Source of the DNA: Nitrospirota bacterium
GTDB lineage: Bacteria; Nitrospirota; UBA9217
DNA length: 64,000 bases
Assembly (NCBI GenBank): GCA_963751455.1
Contig: CAVVUN010000009.1
Location: 224,001 to 288,000, forward strand
Direction of reading: 5' to 3'
A model generated the notes under the pieces. It had not been told where the DNA came from and searched no databases. It saw only the letters and a program-made list of their open reading frames with translations. Made by a program: the position numbers and the translations under genes. Of the stretch, positions 57,420-64,000 are shown one piece after another; within the stretch, counting starts at the first letter, position 1; every line of letters starts with the position of its first letter.

Positions 57420-57569
57420 CTTTGTGTTATGAAAAGCGAACACGTAATCAGGCCATTCAGGCCGTGAAAGAATTCGGTGGGAACCGGCGGTTTATCGTTT
57501 GATAGACCAGCCGATATGAAGGAGTGCCGTCAGGACGTTACGGGCTTTGGAGGAGGGCCATTGGCTCAT
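57420..57569 (-). pseudogene. hicA: HicA toxin pseudogene
   Basis: Manual translation MSQWPSSKARNVLTALLHIGWSIKR*TAGSHRIL..PDYVFAFH; premature TAA and truncated 3' end. Confidence 0.75.
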
Positions 57570-57766
57570 GCAGGCAGCGCAAAAAGCTCATCAAGTTCGG
57601 GAATGTTCTCCCCGTGATCCAGCCGATCTGCTATGATACGCAGTGCCAGTGCTTCAACTTTGGCAATTGCTTCTTCTCGTGTCTTTCCGTAAGCTAAAAC
57701 ACCCGGAAGATCAGAAACCTCGGCAATCCAACGACCATCTTCTTCTTTTTCAATATCTATCTTCAT
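57566..57766 (-). CDS. hicB: HicB-family antitoxin
   Basis: EEDGRWIAEVSDLPGVLAYGKTREEA; ATGA overlap with hicA. Confidence 0.85.
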   Translation of the reverse strand: MKIDIEKEEDGRWIAEVSDLPGVLAYGKTREEAIAKVEALALRIIADRLDHGENIPELDELFALPA

Positions 57767-57878: not shown

Positions 57879-58460
57879 TTACGATTTAACCGCATAAGTT
57901 CCCTTGGGACTTAATGCACGCTTGTAATCTGAAATCGAGTGATATCCGTTCGCCGCAAGAATCAGGTCGTAACGCTGCCCATTTTGGGTGAAATCTTCTC
58001 TGGTGTAATCAATGACCTGGTCTGCGCCAATCGAGCGCACCATATCCAAATTCCTCGTACTGCACACGCCAGTCACTTTAGCTCCGAACGATTTGGCAAT
58101 CTGTACCGCAAACGTACCAACACCACCAGACGCACCATTAATCAAAACCTTTTGCCCTGGCTGAATCTGTCCTTTATCGCGAAGACCATGTAGGGCGGTG
58201 ACTGCCGCCACAGGTACGACCGCTGCTTCCTCGAACGATATATTGGCCGGTTTCAACGCCAATGCATTTTCACGGCACATACATACTCGGCAAAACCGCC
58301 CAAACCGCACTCGAATAAGTCCCCGAATACCTCATCACCCGGCTGAAACTGCCTTACGTTTCTGCCTACTACTTCCACCCGCCCCGCTATGTCAGATCCG
58401 AGTATCTTGTATTTTGGTTTTAGAAGCCCAGAGTGCAGGCGGGCCAAGAACGGGTCAGTT
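57879..58460 (-). pseudogene. Internal fragment of an NAD(P)-dependent MDR oxidoreductase
   Basis: ILGSDIAG.VE, INGASGGVGTFAVQIAK; both ends missing; bounded by a REP at 58462. Confidence 0.8.
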
Positions 58461-58612
58461 GGTAGGTTGGGTAGAACGAAGTGAAACCCAACGCTTTTTA
58501 GTTTTCAGATTACTCACCAATTGCCGAAACATTAAATCTGTCGGGTTTCGCAGCAGCTCTACCCGACCTACGAACTAATTTGTCAACATCAAAGATTCGA
58601 CCCCATGACCAC

Positions 58613-58669
58613 GCATGACCACGTTAATCACCTTGTCCGATGTCAAGGGCAATCACTTTCTTGTTACGT
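58613..58669 (-). other. Degenerate integron attC site after the 991-aa cassette
   Basis: Minus strand ACGTAAC ... CCTTG/CAAGG hairpin ... GTCATGC (GTT changed to GTC); GTAAC is complementary to this cassette's start GTTAC. Confidence 0.5.
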
Positions 58670-58682
58670 TATTCTTACTACA

Positions 58683-61658
58683 TTAATTCTCAGGCTTCTT
58701 GACTGCTAAAAAATGAACGCCAGGTTCTGGCGGCACTAACCACGCGCCAATGGCCTCACCCTCTGTTGGTTGATAGCGATATGACTGGTGAGATTGAGCT
58801 GATGCCCCAATCTTCCAGCCATAACCCATCGATTCAAGCGTAAGCAACGGAGAAAACACGGCGTCATCTGTATCAACTAGACTGCGTCCGTTAAGATGGA
58901 ACGGGGCAATGCCTACTTGAGTGGCTTGTTCAGCCGCCGATAAGTTTCTCTTGCTTACCAGAGTGACATTTCGAGCGCGGAGTGATTTTAGCGCATCTGC
59001 TATTTCAAATTCCAATGTCTTAGGCGACTGTTGGAGACCATTTGCTTTTATGTGGGTTGTTTTACTTAACAGCAACCTTCTCATATGCAACAAATCGACC
59101 TGGGATTCGTTAACAAAGTCAAAGAGAATATTTAGTGGAATGTCACGCGAGTAAGGAAGCAACCCAATTTCGATATACGTTTGCTGTTCATTTTGAATTG
59201 CCGGAATGCAATTGGCCGCCTCGGTAAGTAATTGCTCCATAACTCCATGACCAGGACTTACACAGCCCACTCCTGAAGCAGGAACCAGAAGGAACTTTCC
59301 ACTCGCTAAAAAAGATTTCGCCTCAGTAATGAGAAATTTCATAACATCATTGGGCAACCATGAAGCATACCCCATCGCCATAAAGCGATGTCGTCCCGTT
59401 TTCGATTTCAATTCAGACCCGAGCGTTAATAGGTACCCAGCACCCCAAGGCCCAAACCAATTTCCATCGACCATGTGAAGAAACTTTCCAGATTTGGTTG
59501 GTCCTTTCCACAACAATAAGGTGAAATCTGCATATAAAGACCACAGTCTAAGCGCCTGCCTGATGTCCTCCAGTGATCGCACTTCGATTGTTACATTCAA
59601 TGAGTGTGGAAACGCTTGCAAGTTTCGGAGAATTTGTGCAAAGCAACCGCGGCCCCAATAGTCATAATCGAGCGCTGCCGCATTATAGTCATCTGCGGTA
59701 TCTTCCCACCATTTGACAACAGGGGCTACGGTCAATGCGTTTGCCTCATGTAAACTTAAAATGGGTTCTTCGCTAGGGTTTTCTATTTCTGAATCGCCAA
59801 GATAACGAGAAAAGCCTCTCGCTCGTTCAAGGGTCTCCTTAAAGACGTTTGGCCCTTGTCCTATGAGCGATATGTCAATTATTCGTTTGCGAAGTTCGAT
59901 GTTTGCTTCGACCCGCTTTATATAGTTTTCCTTGATTTTGCATAGCTTTTCATCTTCAGTCAAGCATTCGCCCAATTTAGTCATTGCGCTTTGAAGGCTA
60001 TCGTTCTGTCCGAGCTGTGAAGAATAATTAGCGATCAATCCTAATATTTCTAAATGAATATCCATTGGCACACTAATGCGCCCGGCAACCAAATGATATG
60101 CTTCTTGCGCCAATTCTAAAGCACGCTCAGTTTGCCCTTTGTCTGCAAGTGCCTCTGCCAAATTCATCTTAGCCATAAAGGAAGAATCGACCTCGGAGGC
60201 AAGATCTACGGCTATTTCAGCTTTTTCCACAGCTGTAGCTAAATCGCCTAACTGCCGCGAGATCACAGAAACCAACTGTGTAGTAGCGAACGTAATAGGC
60301 TCAGTCTCTGGTGACACAGCAATGTTCAAGAGTGATTTTGCTTTCTGTAGCGCCTCCTCAAGTCGTCCAGCTTGAAAGTTAACCAAAGCCACCGTGTAAA
60401 GTACGCCGGGTAGAAAGGCCTTACGTGTATCTGTTGAAACTTTGTCAGCTAAACGCAATGCCGCTTCAGACGCGGCTACTGCTGTACTATGACGTTTGGC
60501 GTGTGATGAATTATTTGCAACATTAATCAATTGCCCTGCAATACGCAGGGAGAGAAAGCTGTTACGCGCCGAAGCTTCCAACTCATGAATTCGAGATATA
60601 GCCGCATCTTCATCGCCTGACTTCACTGCCCAGTGAATCCCAGCGTTAAGGGCTGCTTGAAAAACCTCACCGTCAAGCATATCGGGATTGCGCTTTGCAT
60701 ATGTCTCAGCTAAGTTGAGATGCTCCTCGGCCTCACTAGAGCGGTTCGCATTGCACAGAAGATGTACGTACTCTGAACGGGCGACGCATAGTTGTTCGTC
60801 ACAACGCTCGATATTTGCAGGTAGGCTGGCCAATGCAATTGCTTCCAGATATGCAGATTCGGCCCCGTGAAAATCGCGCTTTTCCTCTAGATACGCACCA
60901 CGCGCTCGATGGTACATCACTAAAACGGGCACTTCCGTAATATCTTTATGCAAGGACTCAAGCCGTTGAAAGTAATATCCGCGATCACCTATGCCACCTC
61001 GGGCAGACGAAAGTAAGGATAGGCCAATTAGTACTTCAGCCTGTAAATGGACGAGCTTCTCAGTCTCAGCTATCACAAGTGCCTCTTCCATTGCCTCAAA
61101 TGCCTTACGTCTTTTGTCTTGATTGGCTAGTTCGGTCGCTCGCTTCAATAAAGAGCGTATTTTTGACTCAATTTGATTTGGCGATTTGGAAATTCCAAAT
61201 AGAGAAGATAGCTTCTCCGTCGTTAATTTTTCCAGTCGTTCCCATAGACCGTCAATTCCAAGGGCCTCGACACGAACGTCTGGGTTCACAGCGCTCAGCC
61301 GCGCTAATGTCTTTGCTGTAAGGTGCCCAACCTTGCCATCAGCGCTATTGTGAATAAACGTCCATACTTTGAGAGAACTACCAAGAGTGTCTTTTGCCTT
61401 ATTGAAGTCGGCTGCGACCTTGGAGGCCGTGCTACTATCAGTAGTGAGGCTAGGCGGGGCATAGAGTTGATAAACTCTTCCTTCTTTCAATGCCAACCCG
61501 TCGATGCCACCATCACCTCTTGTTACACGAATTGCCAAGAAGCAGTCTTCGCCGTGAAGAGCAATCGCAATTTTTTCAAACCAGTTTTGGAAGGCTTCCC
61601 CGTGAACACTGCGGAACTCTTCTCGATATTTAAGTTTAATGCCTTGTTCTAAGTCCAT
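58683..61658 (-). CDS. 991-aa protein: N-terminal restriction-endonuclease-like domain, TPR-like array, unknown C-terminal domain
   Basis: AFQNWF...GDGGIDG...YQLYAP...WTFIHN; about 420 aa of Ala/Glu/Leu-rich helical repeats; GGAG/GCGG upstream. Confidence 0.7.
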   Translation of the reverse strand: MDLEQGIKLKYREEFRSVHGEAFQNWFEKIAIALHGEDCFLAIRVTRGDGGIDGLALKEGRVYQLYAPPSLTTDSSTASKVAADFNKAKDTLGSSLKVWTFIHNSADGKVGHLTAKTLARLSAVNPDVRVEALGIDGLWERLEKLTTEKLSSLFGISKSPNQIESKIRSLLKRATELANQDKRRKAFEAMEEALVIAETEKLVHLQAEVLIGLSLLSSARGGIGDRGYYFQRLESLHKDITEVPVLVMYHRARGAYLEEKRDFHGAESAYLEAIALASLPANIERCDEQLCVARSEYVHLLCNANRSSEAEEHLNLAETYAKRNPDMLDGEVFQAALNAGIHWAVKSGDEDAAISRIHELEASARNSFLSLRIAGQLINVANNSSHAKRHSTAVAASEAALRLADKVSTDTRKAFLPGVLYTVALVNFQAGRLEEALQKAKSLLNIAVSPETEPITFATTQLVSVISRQLGDLATAVEKAEIAVDLASEVDSSFMAKMNLAEALADKGQTERALELAQEAYHLVAGRISVPMDIHLEILGLIANYSSQLGQNDSLQSAMTKLGECLTEDEKLCKIKENYIKRVEANIELRKRIIDISLIGQGPNVFKETLERARGFSRYLGDSEIENPSEEPILSLHEANALTVAPVVKWWEDTADDYNAAALDYDYWGRGCFAQILRNLQAFPHSLNVTIEVRSLEDIRQALRLWSLYADFTLLLWKGPTKSGKFLHMVDGNWFGPWGAGYLLTLGSELKSKTGRHRFMAMGYASWLPNDVMKFLITEAKSFLASGKFLLVPASGVGCVSPGHGVMEQLLTEAANCIPAIQNEQQTYIEIGLLPYSRDIPLNILFDFVNESQVDLLHMRRLLLSKTTHIKANGLQQSPKTLEFEIADALKSLRARNVTLVSKRNLSAAEQATQVGIAPFHLNGRSLVDTDDAVFSPLLTLESMGYGWKIGASAQSHQSYRYQPTEGEAIGAWLVPPEPGVHFLAVKKPEN

Positions 61659-61740
61659 CCGCTCTCCATGACGTATTTAGTCTATACATCTATACTGTAA
61701 AAAGCGCTTCAACGCTAATGTTCATCGTCAGCACAGGGAG

Positions 61741-61799
61741 GGGTAACATGCGGATGTGGGGCGTGATTCTCAACGACCCTTACGATCCGCTTGTTATGC
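61741..61799 (-). other. Integron attC site (59 bp)
   Basis: Minus strand GCATAAC-aagcg-GATCGTAA...CCACATC-cgcat-GTTACCC. The opposite strand folds with an extrahelical G, and the upstream gene's TAA stop lies in R''. Confidence 0.85.
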
Positions 61800-63581
61800 C
61801 TGCTCGATAAATAGCTCTGAACCTCTTTTTATAGATCGGTTGAACATAATACCGATCTCGCCGGAATGAGCCTCGTCAACGCTTTTATCGTCTATTTGTA
61901 TAGACTTCACAACAGCTACCGCGTAGCTTGAATTCTTTTTTACAATTATCTTCATGTTTCTTGTGATATGAATTCTATTGATGTTTTTTACGATCGCAAT
62001 TTTCCCATCCTGATAGTATTCTTCGGGAACGCCAATGGAAATAAGGTTTTCGGGTTTTAATTCAATTAATCCCACTTGAAACAATTTATTGCGGACATGT
62101 TCCTTAGTTATTATGCCGTCTTCAACCATGAAGTATGCTTTGTACAACTCAAAAGTTGTTAATAGGCCACGCTTATCCAAAAGCGCATCTCCTATCTGGA
62201 CGTCTGAAAAAGGAGGATTAAGCCTGCTGTGAGGAGGTATATAACGCTGATGATTAACTATATACAGCCCAAAAACATCAAACCGATTTCTCTGCTCGGC
62301 TCTTCGAAATCTAATTTTGGATATCTGTGAGCAATCCTTGTCTGTGGATGTGCCACTGATGCCCTTAACCTCGATAACAAGAAGTCCTTTTTCATTTTCT
62401 ACTTGCAAATCCTCTTCCTTAATTTCTAATTCCAACTCGTCCATGTTTACGACGGATTCAAAGCCTAACCAGTTAAGAAAATATTCGACTGCCTTTACAA
62501 GCTTATCGCCGGTTTCAAATATAAGTTCATGAAGAAAGTGATATTTAATTCTATTTTCACTTAGCAATCTATCCAAATCATGAATATCTTTTTGATATTT
62601 CTCTTCGAGATTTTTCTTAGCCTCAATAAGGGCATTTTCACCAGGGAGTAAATATTCTCCACTTTTTAGCCATCCGAATTGACCATGAAATGGAAACAAT
62701 TCTGGGTAAATTTCGGGAAGATAAACGTTGAGTAGGTCAGAAAGAAATTTTCCCTTATTCTTGATATCGGGAAAAACTAAAATCAATCCTTCGTCATAAA
62801 AGTGACTAAAACTAATTATTTCCCCATTATCATTGACTAACAATGGCAAGAAAGATTTCATTTTCACATTCTTTCCATCTTTCCATTCTGTCGGATGGGA
62901 AAAAACTATATTATAGGTTGAGCCATCCAGATATTTTTCAAGAAGTGGAGACAATTTAGTCTCACTCTCCGGAAGTTTTATTTTATTACCAGACTTATTT
63001 TTCGAGGATGGTAAGCCACTATAGAAATCAAGATTTGAATATTCTTTTTCGCTCGTAACATTAGCATAACGGTCATTAATTTCTACGAATTGATAAGAAA
63101 CGCTCTCTTCTTGAGGAGAGAAGCATATGACGACAGACTCTTTTTTTAGTATTTCTGCAATTTCTTTGGCGATGACATAAATAGACAGAGGCCTCGGATC
63201 GAAAATCGTTTGCGGATATTTGCAAAGTAGAGCATGTGCTTTTTTGTCCTTTGTTCGGTCTATGCTGTGATCATTATCTTTATACTCAATACTTTTCTCT
63301 CTAGTCATATCAAAAATGACTATGTCAAACTCGTGAAGATTTGCAGGAATTCGATAATTGAGCAATAAGAAATGTTCAGAATGGCGTTCGTTATTTGGAA
63401 CTTTTACGCAGGTTCCGGTACTTGCCACCTCATGCTTAAAAAGGTTTGAACTTAGAAGCTTCGAGACGTCATCATCAGTATCAAATAAACATATCAATGG
63501 CCTTTCATGAGGAGATGCGCTTTGAACCTGAGCATCTTTTATTGTTCCCAAAGTGTCTTTCTTTTTTTTCGTTTTAAACAT
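61794..63581 (-). CDS. 595-aa protein: unknown N-terminal domain, coiled coil, PD-(D/E)XK nuclease, C-terminal EF-Tu-domain-II-like beta-barrel
   Basis: LGF...EEDLQV...VIEVKG; tail VKSIQIDDKSVDEAHSGEIGI; AT-rich. Confidence 0.7.
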   Translation of the reverse strand: MFKTKKKKDTLGTIKDAQVQSASPHERPLICLFDTDDDVSKLLSSNLFKHEVASTGTCVKVPNNERHSEHFLLLNYRIPANLHEFDIVIFDMTREKSIEYKDNDHSIDRTKDKKAHALLCKYPQTIFDPRPLSIYVIAKEIAEILKKESVVICFSPQEESVSYQFVEINDRYANVTSEKEYSNLDFYSGLPSSKNKSGNKIKLPESETKLSPLLEKYLDGSTYNIVFSHPTEWKDGKNVKMKSFLPLLVNDNGEIISFSHFYDEGLILVFPDIKNKGKFLSDLLNVYLPEIYPELFPFHGQFGWLKSGEYLLPGENALIEAKKNLEEKYQKDIHDLDRLLSENRIKYHFLHELIFETGDKLVKAVEYFLNWLGFESVVNMDELELEIKEEDLQVENEKGLLVIEVKGISGTSTDKDCSQISKIRFRRAEQRNRFDVFGLYIVNHQRYIPPHSRLNPPFSDVQIGDALLDKRGLLTTFELYKAYFMVEDGIITKEHVRNKLFQVGLIELKPENLISIGVPEEYYQDGKIAIVKNINRIHITRNMKIIVKKNSSYAVAVVKSIQIDDKSVDEAHSGEIGIMFNRSIKRGSELFIEQA

Positions 63582-63617
63582 TTTATCAAACCTCTATCAA
63601 CAATTTGCTCCGATAAC

Positions 63618-64000
63618 GAGTCTGTAGAAAAAGTCATTTTGCGAGAGATCTTTTTATCGCATCTCGTCTTTGATCCAACCTGTGTGCTCAGATTATCGGT
63701 TCGTTTTGATGATCTGCTTCGTGAGTGCCCCGGTTTCTATTCGGGTTGCCTTTCATTTACTGCTTTTTTGCTGCTCTTAACCATGCTTCTCACGCAAACC
63801 CCGGCCCGTATCGATGCACCTTCAGAAGATTGTGCACAATGCAGTAGAGCCGCCACTGGATGCTCACCTTCTTTTTCCCTCTGAGACTGAATCGATCCAG
63901 GCCGAGACTGGAACGGATGTCGGCAAAGACGGGTTCGACCGTCGCCATCCTTCTTCCATAGATCAGCTTGCCCGCTACCGAATCTATCTTCTCCCGCATC
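63618..64000 (-). mobile_element. 3' end of an IS1182-family element (transposase C-terminus at 63790-63999) abutting a cassette GTT core
   Basis: YGRRMATVEPVFADIR..LGLDRFSLRGKKKV..QWRLYCIVHNLLK; minus-strand end GACTTTTTCTACAGACTC directly followed by GTTATCG. Confidence 0.85.

Follow-up and report, generated by a model that had tools for sequence, protein, structure and literature searches.

An integron cassette array without an integrase, with two large candidate defence genes and an IS1182-family element at an attC site

Sedentary integrons of Vibrio carry phage-defence systems as gene cassettes. Phage-defence cassettes of integrons have also been described as BRiCs (10.1101/2024.07.02.601719), and clusters of attC sites lacking an integrase are termed CALINs (10.1101/030866). 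According to the latter source, cassettes are known up to a size of about 2 kb; elsewhere the median coding sequence of cassettes is given as 362-575 bp, and excision is reported to be reduced at lengths of at least 1.5 kb, in some settings only (PMC5371416).

The locus analysed here lies at the end of a window, that is, the whole stretch of 64,000 nucleotides under study (G000:C9:224001-288000, from an assembly of 5.72 Mb and 51.4% GC), and extends beyond it; positions above 64000 continue the window numbering along the contig. It resembles the CALINs of 10.1101/030866 in the attC spacing, a contig free of intI, an insertion sequence inside the array and intI loci elsewhere, and departs from their description in having 24 scattered clusters in one genome with five out of five intI copies damaged, a proximal edge formed by an IS91 remnant, and a terminal 3-kb gene deprived of its attC. 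With BRiCs and the Vibrio sedentary-integron systems it shares single-gene candidate defence cargo in cassettes, but no sequence link to BRiCs (10.1101/2024.07.02.601719) was found, in comparisons that did not directly include the BRiC sequences themselves. On balance, we favour the reading that this is the distal end of an IntI-less array, whose two largest genes, coding for proteins of 595 and 991 amino acids (aa), are likely stand-alone anti-phage genes, and which is probably immobile. The novelty lies in the cargo and not in the array: two compact, testable candidates outside the current defence libraries.

Organisation of the array and its attC sites

The features of the array are listed in Table 1. 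Read from the proximal edge, an IS91 remnant is succeeded by the 247-aa gene, eroded attC sites, the 293-aa gene, attC 65422-65480 and IS1182, followed by the 595-aa gene, the attC at 61741-61799, the 991-aa gene, a lost attC and a broken dehydrogenase gene.

Table 1. Coordinates of the array, its borders and the domains of the two large proteins (window numbering unless a locus or residues are given)
Feature	Position	Strand	Remarks
Broken Zn-dehydrogenase gene	57879-58447		5'-truncated, frameshifted; Pfam ADH_N and ADH_zinc_N in separate frames
Inverted repeat	58455-58577	.	Fold z -3.5; outer boundary of array
Dispersed repeat end (GGGGTC..TCTT..TTGACA type)	58580-58604	minus	Five other copies in genome
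R''-like remnant ACGTAAC	58663-58669	minus	After 991-aa stop; no model match
991-aa gene	58683-61658	minus	Terminal gene of array
attC	61741-61799	minus	59 bp, canonical
595-aa gene	61794-63581	minus	Complete cassette
5' core site of 595-aa cassette, GTTATCG	63611-63617	minus	Now right-hand copy of GTT target duplication
IS1182-family element (right end in window)	63618-64000, continuing to ~65425	minus	Transposase frameshifted
Next attC, past window	65422-65480		Covariance model 66.4 bits
Array remainder, past window	L006:10423-12394	minus	66.4-bit attC, 293-aa and 247-aa genes, 43.5-bit degenerate attC, eroded sites
IS91-family remnant, past window	L006:12478-13020, to ~68020	minus	3' part of transposase, NF033538 E 9e-12
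GATase-like fold	residues 26-299 of 595-aa protein		Structure model, no recognisable triad
Coiled coil	residues 315-346 of 595-aa protein		Structure model
FokI-like PD-(D/E)XK nuclease	residues 347-510 of 595-aa protein		Structure model
EF-Tu-domain-II-like barrel	residues 514-595 of 595-aa protein		Structure model
REase-like N-domain	residues 1-155 of 991-aa protein		Structure model
TPR solenoid	residues 157-600 of 991-aa protein		Structure model, fold search
C-terminal alpha/beta domain	residues 630-991 of 991-aa protein		Structure model

The site at 61741-61799 had been proposed in the preliminary description as a 59-bp attC with the gene stop inside R'' and an extrahelical G, and it holds up in each of these points. 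Its R'' is GCATAAC and includes the stop codon of the 595-aa gene, R' is GTTACCC, the L and R boxes are separated by 5-bp spacers, and an extra C in L'' provides the extrahelical base (G on the bottom strand). The bottom strand folds with -19.4 kcal/mol (z -6.17; none of 200 shuffles was as stable) into a hairpin pairing the AAC of R'' with the GTT of R', the top strand giving a weaker fold (z -4.34). The covariance-model search that had been suggested was carried out with a model of the genome's own sites, instead of that of IntegronFinder, built from 25 other attC sites with the site in question left out; it scored 41.1 bits (E 5.8e-9), against 14.4 bits for the runner-up within the window. 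Training set and site were all picked up by one pattern scan, which limits the independence of the test. The training alignment does covary, with 78 cells changed on both sides against 30 ± 4 after shuffling (0/500). By fold and covariance model the site is a genuine attC, and its recombination by IntI is predicted.

Three same-strand attC sites detected by the model lie less than 4 kb apart (gaps of 3,681 and 1,097 bp), and no intI occurs anywhere on contig C9. With at least two same-strand attC within 4 kb and no intI nearby, the array is an ordinary CALIN that runs past 64 kb, as had been anticipated: the suggested search beyond the window yielded the further attC sites of Table 1, and intI was found only elsewhere in the assembly. 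A reading as the far end of a complete integron was rejected on the termination of the array at ~67.5 kb in the IS91 remnant and on a contig free of intI. The array begins right at the 3' end of this remnant, next to which lies an attC-like palindrome that lacks GTT; no other end of this kind was found in the genome. The 293-aa and 247-aa cassette genes had no match in NCBIfam or PADLOC; the latter gene product has an RxxxxH motif and looks HEPN-like by eye.

A genome-wide covariance search returned 76 matches at E up to 1, and 71 attC-like sites (E < 0.01, the 25 training sites included) make up the 24 clusters when joined by an 8-kb rule. Five intI copies reside on other contigs: one breaks off ahead of the catalytic tyrosine, one is interrupted by a short insertion that brings in a stop codon, one has a frameshift, and the remaining two are fragments. 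Because all five are damaged, the array is probably immobile ('frozen') at present, subject to assembly error. The "mobile defence reservoir" proposed earlier thus retains its defensive-looking cargo, while its mobility has become doubtful. It should be added that the intI at L022 (G000:C2:448264-448370) is otherwise whole and is broken by an in-frame insertion of ~105 bp containing a stop, that the first cassette beside the C1 intI (L007:7364-8590, minus strand) codes for a 408-aa protein that is DGQHR/DndB-like by eye, and that attC-like sequence was also matched in many of 63 genomes of the same family.

Cassette boundaries and the terminal gene

The 595-aa gene forms a cassette of 1,870 bp with a GTT core at its 5' side, a full attC at its 3' side and complementary cores: the original start G|TTATCG at 63617 is complementary to R'' GCATAAC (61799), in agreement with the GTTAT and ATAAC ends noted before. 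The two genes are co-oriented minus-strand frames, and both are AT-rich, as was stated at the outset: GC content is 36.2% in the 595-aa gene and 46.4% in the 991-aa gene (0.6% and 5.2%, respectively, of 698 long open reading frames being as low), compared with 51.4% in the genome. Both are far larger than the median cassette coding sequence given in PMC5371416. Within this genome, though, the supposedly unusual size of the ~1.9-kb cassette turned out to be unexceptional, since 16 out of 47 attC-attC gaps (median 1,093 bp, sizes being inflated by missed sites and insertion sequences) reach at least 1.8 kb. Another large cassette carries a 619-aa open reading frame that ends at an attC (L010, upstream of 9704; G000:C2:79703).

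The 991-aa gene starts ~83 bp past the attC, and no attC was found downstream of it with the covariance model, so that in its present form the 3.1-kb 'cassette' cannot be excised. Of the two complete excisable cassettes originally described, only that of the 595-aa gene is therefore retained. The GTTAC and GTAAC ends ascribed to the second one have a counterpart in the R''-like heptamer after the stop, without the attC to accompany it, and no GTT core site is present at the boundary that had been placed at 58613. A candidate attC at 58581-58670 was rejected, as it folds with -5.8 kcal/mol (z +0.74), has no model match and takes its right arm from the dispersed repeat. Three of the five other copies of this repeat adjoin Y1/RAYT-like transposase genes. 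The inverted repeat beyond it, which we take to be REPIN-like, sits at the 5' edge of the broken dehydrogenase gene; partial copies of this palindrome occur at C2, C3, C6 and C12. Farther out, a 66-aa HicB-like antitoxin followed by an apparent decayed hicA frame was seen at 57566-57766 (minus strand).

It is conceivable, if somewhat doubtful, that the 991-aa gene never was a cassette and is instead an independent defence-island gene, in front of which IntI built the array at a secondary GTT site, the heptamer being there by chance. Integration outside att sites is on record (10.1101/2022.09.11.507474), 3.1 kb exceeds the ~2 kb of the largest known cassettes (10.1101/030866), the GC content of the gene is just mildly low, and besides the missing attC after its stop, its homologues show attC flanking no higher than background and adjoin HsdM, HerA or type IIG genes in three out of 12 neighbours. 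Against this stand the orientation of the gene, shared with the array, and its start so close to the attC; the pairing of GTTAC with GTAAC of a heptamer 13 bp past its stop; and the mobile-repeat ends that occupy the place of the missing attC part, as later damage would give. We keep to the reading of a former cassette at the distal end of the array. A once-active IntI may have assembled the array or left cassettes behind at a secondary GTT site, IS1182 would later have landed on one attC core, and decay of the outermost attC would have fixed the 991-aa gene in place.

The two large proteins and their possible functions

The 595-aa protein has no match in Pfam, PADLOC or NCBIfam, and PDB sequence searches with both proteins returned no significant match other than TPR. 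A fold search identified its nuclease domain as a FokI/BspD6I-type cleavage domain. Residues D391, E404, K406 and Q419 are invariant in all 75 divergent sequences of the family, and the nuclease is the best-conserved domain (0.68 vs 0.40-0.48). With a restriction-endonuclease fold and a conserved D..ExK, the protein conforms to the PD-(D/E)XK superfamily, and its assignment as a nuclease, in part on a structure model, is well supported. It is furthermore predicted to be an antiparallel coiled-coil homodimer, with a score of 0.71 against 0.00 for the best control, a pLDDT of 88 and runs agreeing in at least 97% of contacts; 20 of 30 solved dimers attained that mark, as did one of 23 monomers. 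The barrel is kept in 75 out of 75 full-length family members, and its best structural matches are domain II of translation GTPases (the EF-Tu/eRF3/SelB fold); Pfam GTP_EFTU_D2 was matched by eight of the 75 barrels (best E 4e-4). No Cys-His-Glu triad could be recognised in the model of the GATase-like domain. The protein is like the type IIS enzymes FokI and BspD6I in the fold of its cleavage domain. It differs from FokI in that a GATase-like fold and an EF-Tu-II barrel flank this domain in place of the FokI recognition domain, and in that no methylase recurs.

Clustering at 90% identity sorts the homologues of the 595-aa protein into 753 clusters. They have a patchy spread across many phyla and were met on seven plasmids and 19 viral contigs; neither this gene nor the 991-aa gene was found in the 63 genomes of the same family. 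Among 543 neighbours of the homologues no partner gene recurs, and type II methyltransferases adjoin three of 79 scanned loci, which sets the family apart from type IIS restriction-modification with its linked methyltransferase. PADLOC matches are not enriched in raw numbers (12 of 149 nearest neighbours vs 7 of 44 control window genes); about ten of the 12 look specific and near-full-length and the control ones partial and generic, although this sorting is a matter of judgement. The covariance model is too narrow for homologue loci (two weak matches in 90), and heuristic hairpin tests with controls were therefore used. An attC-like hairpin 3' of the gene was present in 10 of 78 homologues, compared with 9/300 and 8/246 controls, and a stricter test gave 3/78 vs 1/400; ~87% of homologues show no attC. 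Hairpins resembling attC, some of them long (up to ~190 nt), flank homologues of Bacteroidota and cyanobacteria (L061, L063, L067, L072, L076, L089). Longer fused forms of the 595-aa protein were sought and none found, which is weak evidence.

The structure model of the 991-aa protein (pLDDT 79) shows a restriction-enzyme-like order of helices and strands in the N-domain. Searches in Pfam, PADLOC and NCBIfam gave TPR only, and TPR matches filled the listing of a fold search with the whole model. The N-domain has a conserved motif, GD..DG..Q.Y, in which the lysine position reads Y (Q-L-Y); it occurs also, 72% identical, on a Walker-A/TPR protein (P0155), and a relative sharing it matches PADLOC LmuA (E 6e-6). 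By fold order and this relative, nuclease activity is likely, and not established since direct comparison with Mrr_cat proteins fails; neither these nor PDB entries were matched directly. Of the two "nuclease cassettes" announced earlier, the 595-aa gene accordingly fits the term well, with D391/E404/K406 invariant, and the 991-aa gene only indirectly. The expectation of attC-flanked homologues shared a similar fate: some 595-aa homologues have such flanks, whereas weak attC matches at 991-aa homologues (1/7 and 1/9) are at background level and essentially all lack attC. HsdM, HerA or type IIG models were matched by three of 12 neighbours of the latter.

The C-terminal domain of the 991-aa protein received no assignment in the searches, DUF6236 being matched by one of 34 such domains (E 0.014). 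Its profile collected 200 clusters, with the domain present in one of 400 genomes of the phylum. The N-termini of 71 long members vary widely. Among 41 long relatives chosen for N-terminal diversity, 12 gave a Pfam assignment (Mrr_cat, 2; DUF4365, 1; TIR/SEFIR, 2; PNP, 3; kinase, 2; trypsin, 2) and none matched an NTPase family, in contrast to what is expected of STAND NTPases; Walker A is absent from the 991-aa protein and found in one of 71 relatives, a chance level (1.35 expected by shuffling). These swapped domains overlap with the effector set of counter-invader systems (PMC8195603). The family resembles TPR-GreA/B-C-PIN of that source as a stand-alone gene with a constant TPR core and swapped N-terminal REase, TIR, PNPase or trypsin domains, but no GreA/B-C or PIN Pfam match was obtained in the scanned members and, as judged from sequence, its constant domain is apparently a different one. 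An effector plus TPR sensor layout is likewise shared with Avs/STAND receptors (PMC13581612), though the 991-aa family is devoid of the STAND NTPase.

Neither protein had a match in PADLOC-DB 2.0 (2023), nor a defence match in NCBIfam, in the recommended check against defence libraries. The cargo has the look of defence genes. A literature search found no description of either family, which the supplements of PMC13092281, PMC13581612 and PMC8195603 could still list; they are undescribed candidate defence families. We consider an anti-phage function of both genes rather probable. In the 595-aa protein, the antiparallel coiled-coil dimer would keep two FokI-type nuclease domains together. Sensing of an infection would fall to the EF-Tu-II-like barrel and to the GATase-like domain, which has no recognisable triad, and these would then permit the DNA to be cleaved, resulting in phage restriction or abortive infection. 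In the 991-aa protein, a phage protein may be bound by the TPR solenoid; the signal may then pass through the constant C-terminal domain, without an NTPase switch, to activate the N-terminal Mrr/LmuA-like nuclease.

A function outside defence, as selfish toxic or addiction modules or as inert passengers of a decayed array, is improbable to us. It would agree with the missing library matches, the weak neighbourhood signal and a scan for promoters that gave no more than chance (8 vs 9.8 +/- 3.2), but it is at odds with intact frames and catalytic residues invariant across phyla, with the failure to find an antitoxin partner among recurring neighbours, and with the effector swapping of the 991-aa family, typical of immune sensors. 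Within the anti-phage reading, the 595-aa protein could be a constitutive modification-dependent (type IV-like) restriction nuclease, in which the barrel and the GATase-like domain would recognise base modifications or the ends of nucleic acids on incoming DNA and not a phage or host protein. The FokI/BspD6I-type cleavage domain, the predicted dimeric arrangement and the lack of a recurring cognate methylase would suit such an enzyme, and so would the EF-Tu-II-like barrels that CoCoNuT helicases, which are related to type IV systems, have as predicted OB-fold domains (PMC11090510). We nevertheless regard it as unlikely, because the best structural matches of the barrel are translation GTPase domain II and not known modified-base readers. 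Among the 50 fold matches listed there was no SRA, PUA, EVE or winged-helix reader, which does not exclude one.

In the infection-sensing reading, the cue itself is a matter of speculation. Host EF-Tu is co-opted by Avs7 by way of its domains II and III, and it is also bound by the T4 capsid protein (PMC13581612). EF-Tu is thereby tied to phage sensing, which makes it reasonable to ask whether the barrel is a decoy for phage proteins that grab EF-Tu; by analogy this can be entertained, and we give it rather little credence. The protein would differ from Avs7 (PMC13581612) in having its own EF-Tu-II-like barrel with no EF-Tu recruitment. The barrel is no better conserved than the N-domain, and the EF-Tu-II fold also occurs in non-translation proteins, both of which speak against a decoy. 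Equally tentative is a broader picture, in which the 595-aa protein would be a one-gene integrated-decoy receptor coupling a bait for capsid proteins or translation hijackers to a FokI-type nuclease, the 991-aa protein would represent a second, NTPase-free class of TPR receptors with interchangeable death effectors, and both would spread via integron arrays. Since EF-Tu is now known as a hub of phage-host conflict, the fused barrel would allow one to test directly whether bacteria sense phages by an integrated decoy. With the 991-aa family, TPR receptors that swap effectors would come to include a form signalling without an NTPase.

The IS1182-family element at attC sites

Mobile elements that home to attC are known from IS1111-attC elements and group IIC-attC introns, to which the element next to the 595-aa cassette bears likeness. 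It differs from these, as far as the available sources describe them, in belonging to the IS1182 family, in duplicating the R' GTT target and in rebuilding a consensus R'. A literature search found no account of IS1182 homing to integron attC.

The element lies on the R' GTT of the 65422-65480 attC, between two GTT copies, and its left end rebuilds GTTGAAC. Relatives were sought with a query restricted to the insertion sequence, as a query containing attC sequence is biased. Twenty copies retain the left end, 19 of them with enough flank, and 17 of these 19 abut an attC detected by the model (two partial). Over all loci, 33 rows were sorted as left ends, and GTT precedes 32 of them, the exception being a mis-sorted right end; it follows 21 of 26 other ends, three of the exceptions being mis-sorted left ends. 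Outside the family, five out of five left ends follow GTT, with a model match at one only. This IS1182 lineage inserts at the R' GTT of attC in one orientation, duplicating GTT and rebuilding a consensus R'. Placed on the crossover triplets of attC, it can ride on, or reshape, cassettes.

In the literature comparison, a mutant given as 'D962A' made Cosus/Brc24 look like a cassette protein of 1,000 aa; this was dropped, as D96A stands elsewhere in the same section and the former is probably a misprint. Mini-elements sharing the IS1182 ends occur also. In a second IS1182 copy (G000:C12:53290-55150) the left end is missing, and the left arm of the attC is fused to insertion sequence that resembles an attC right arm; GTT is again present after the right end.
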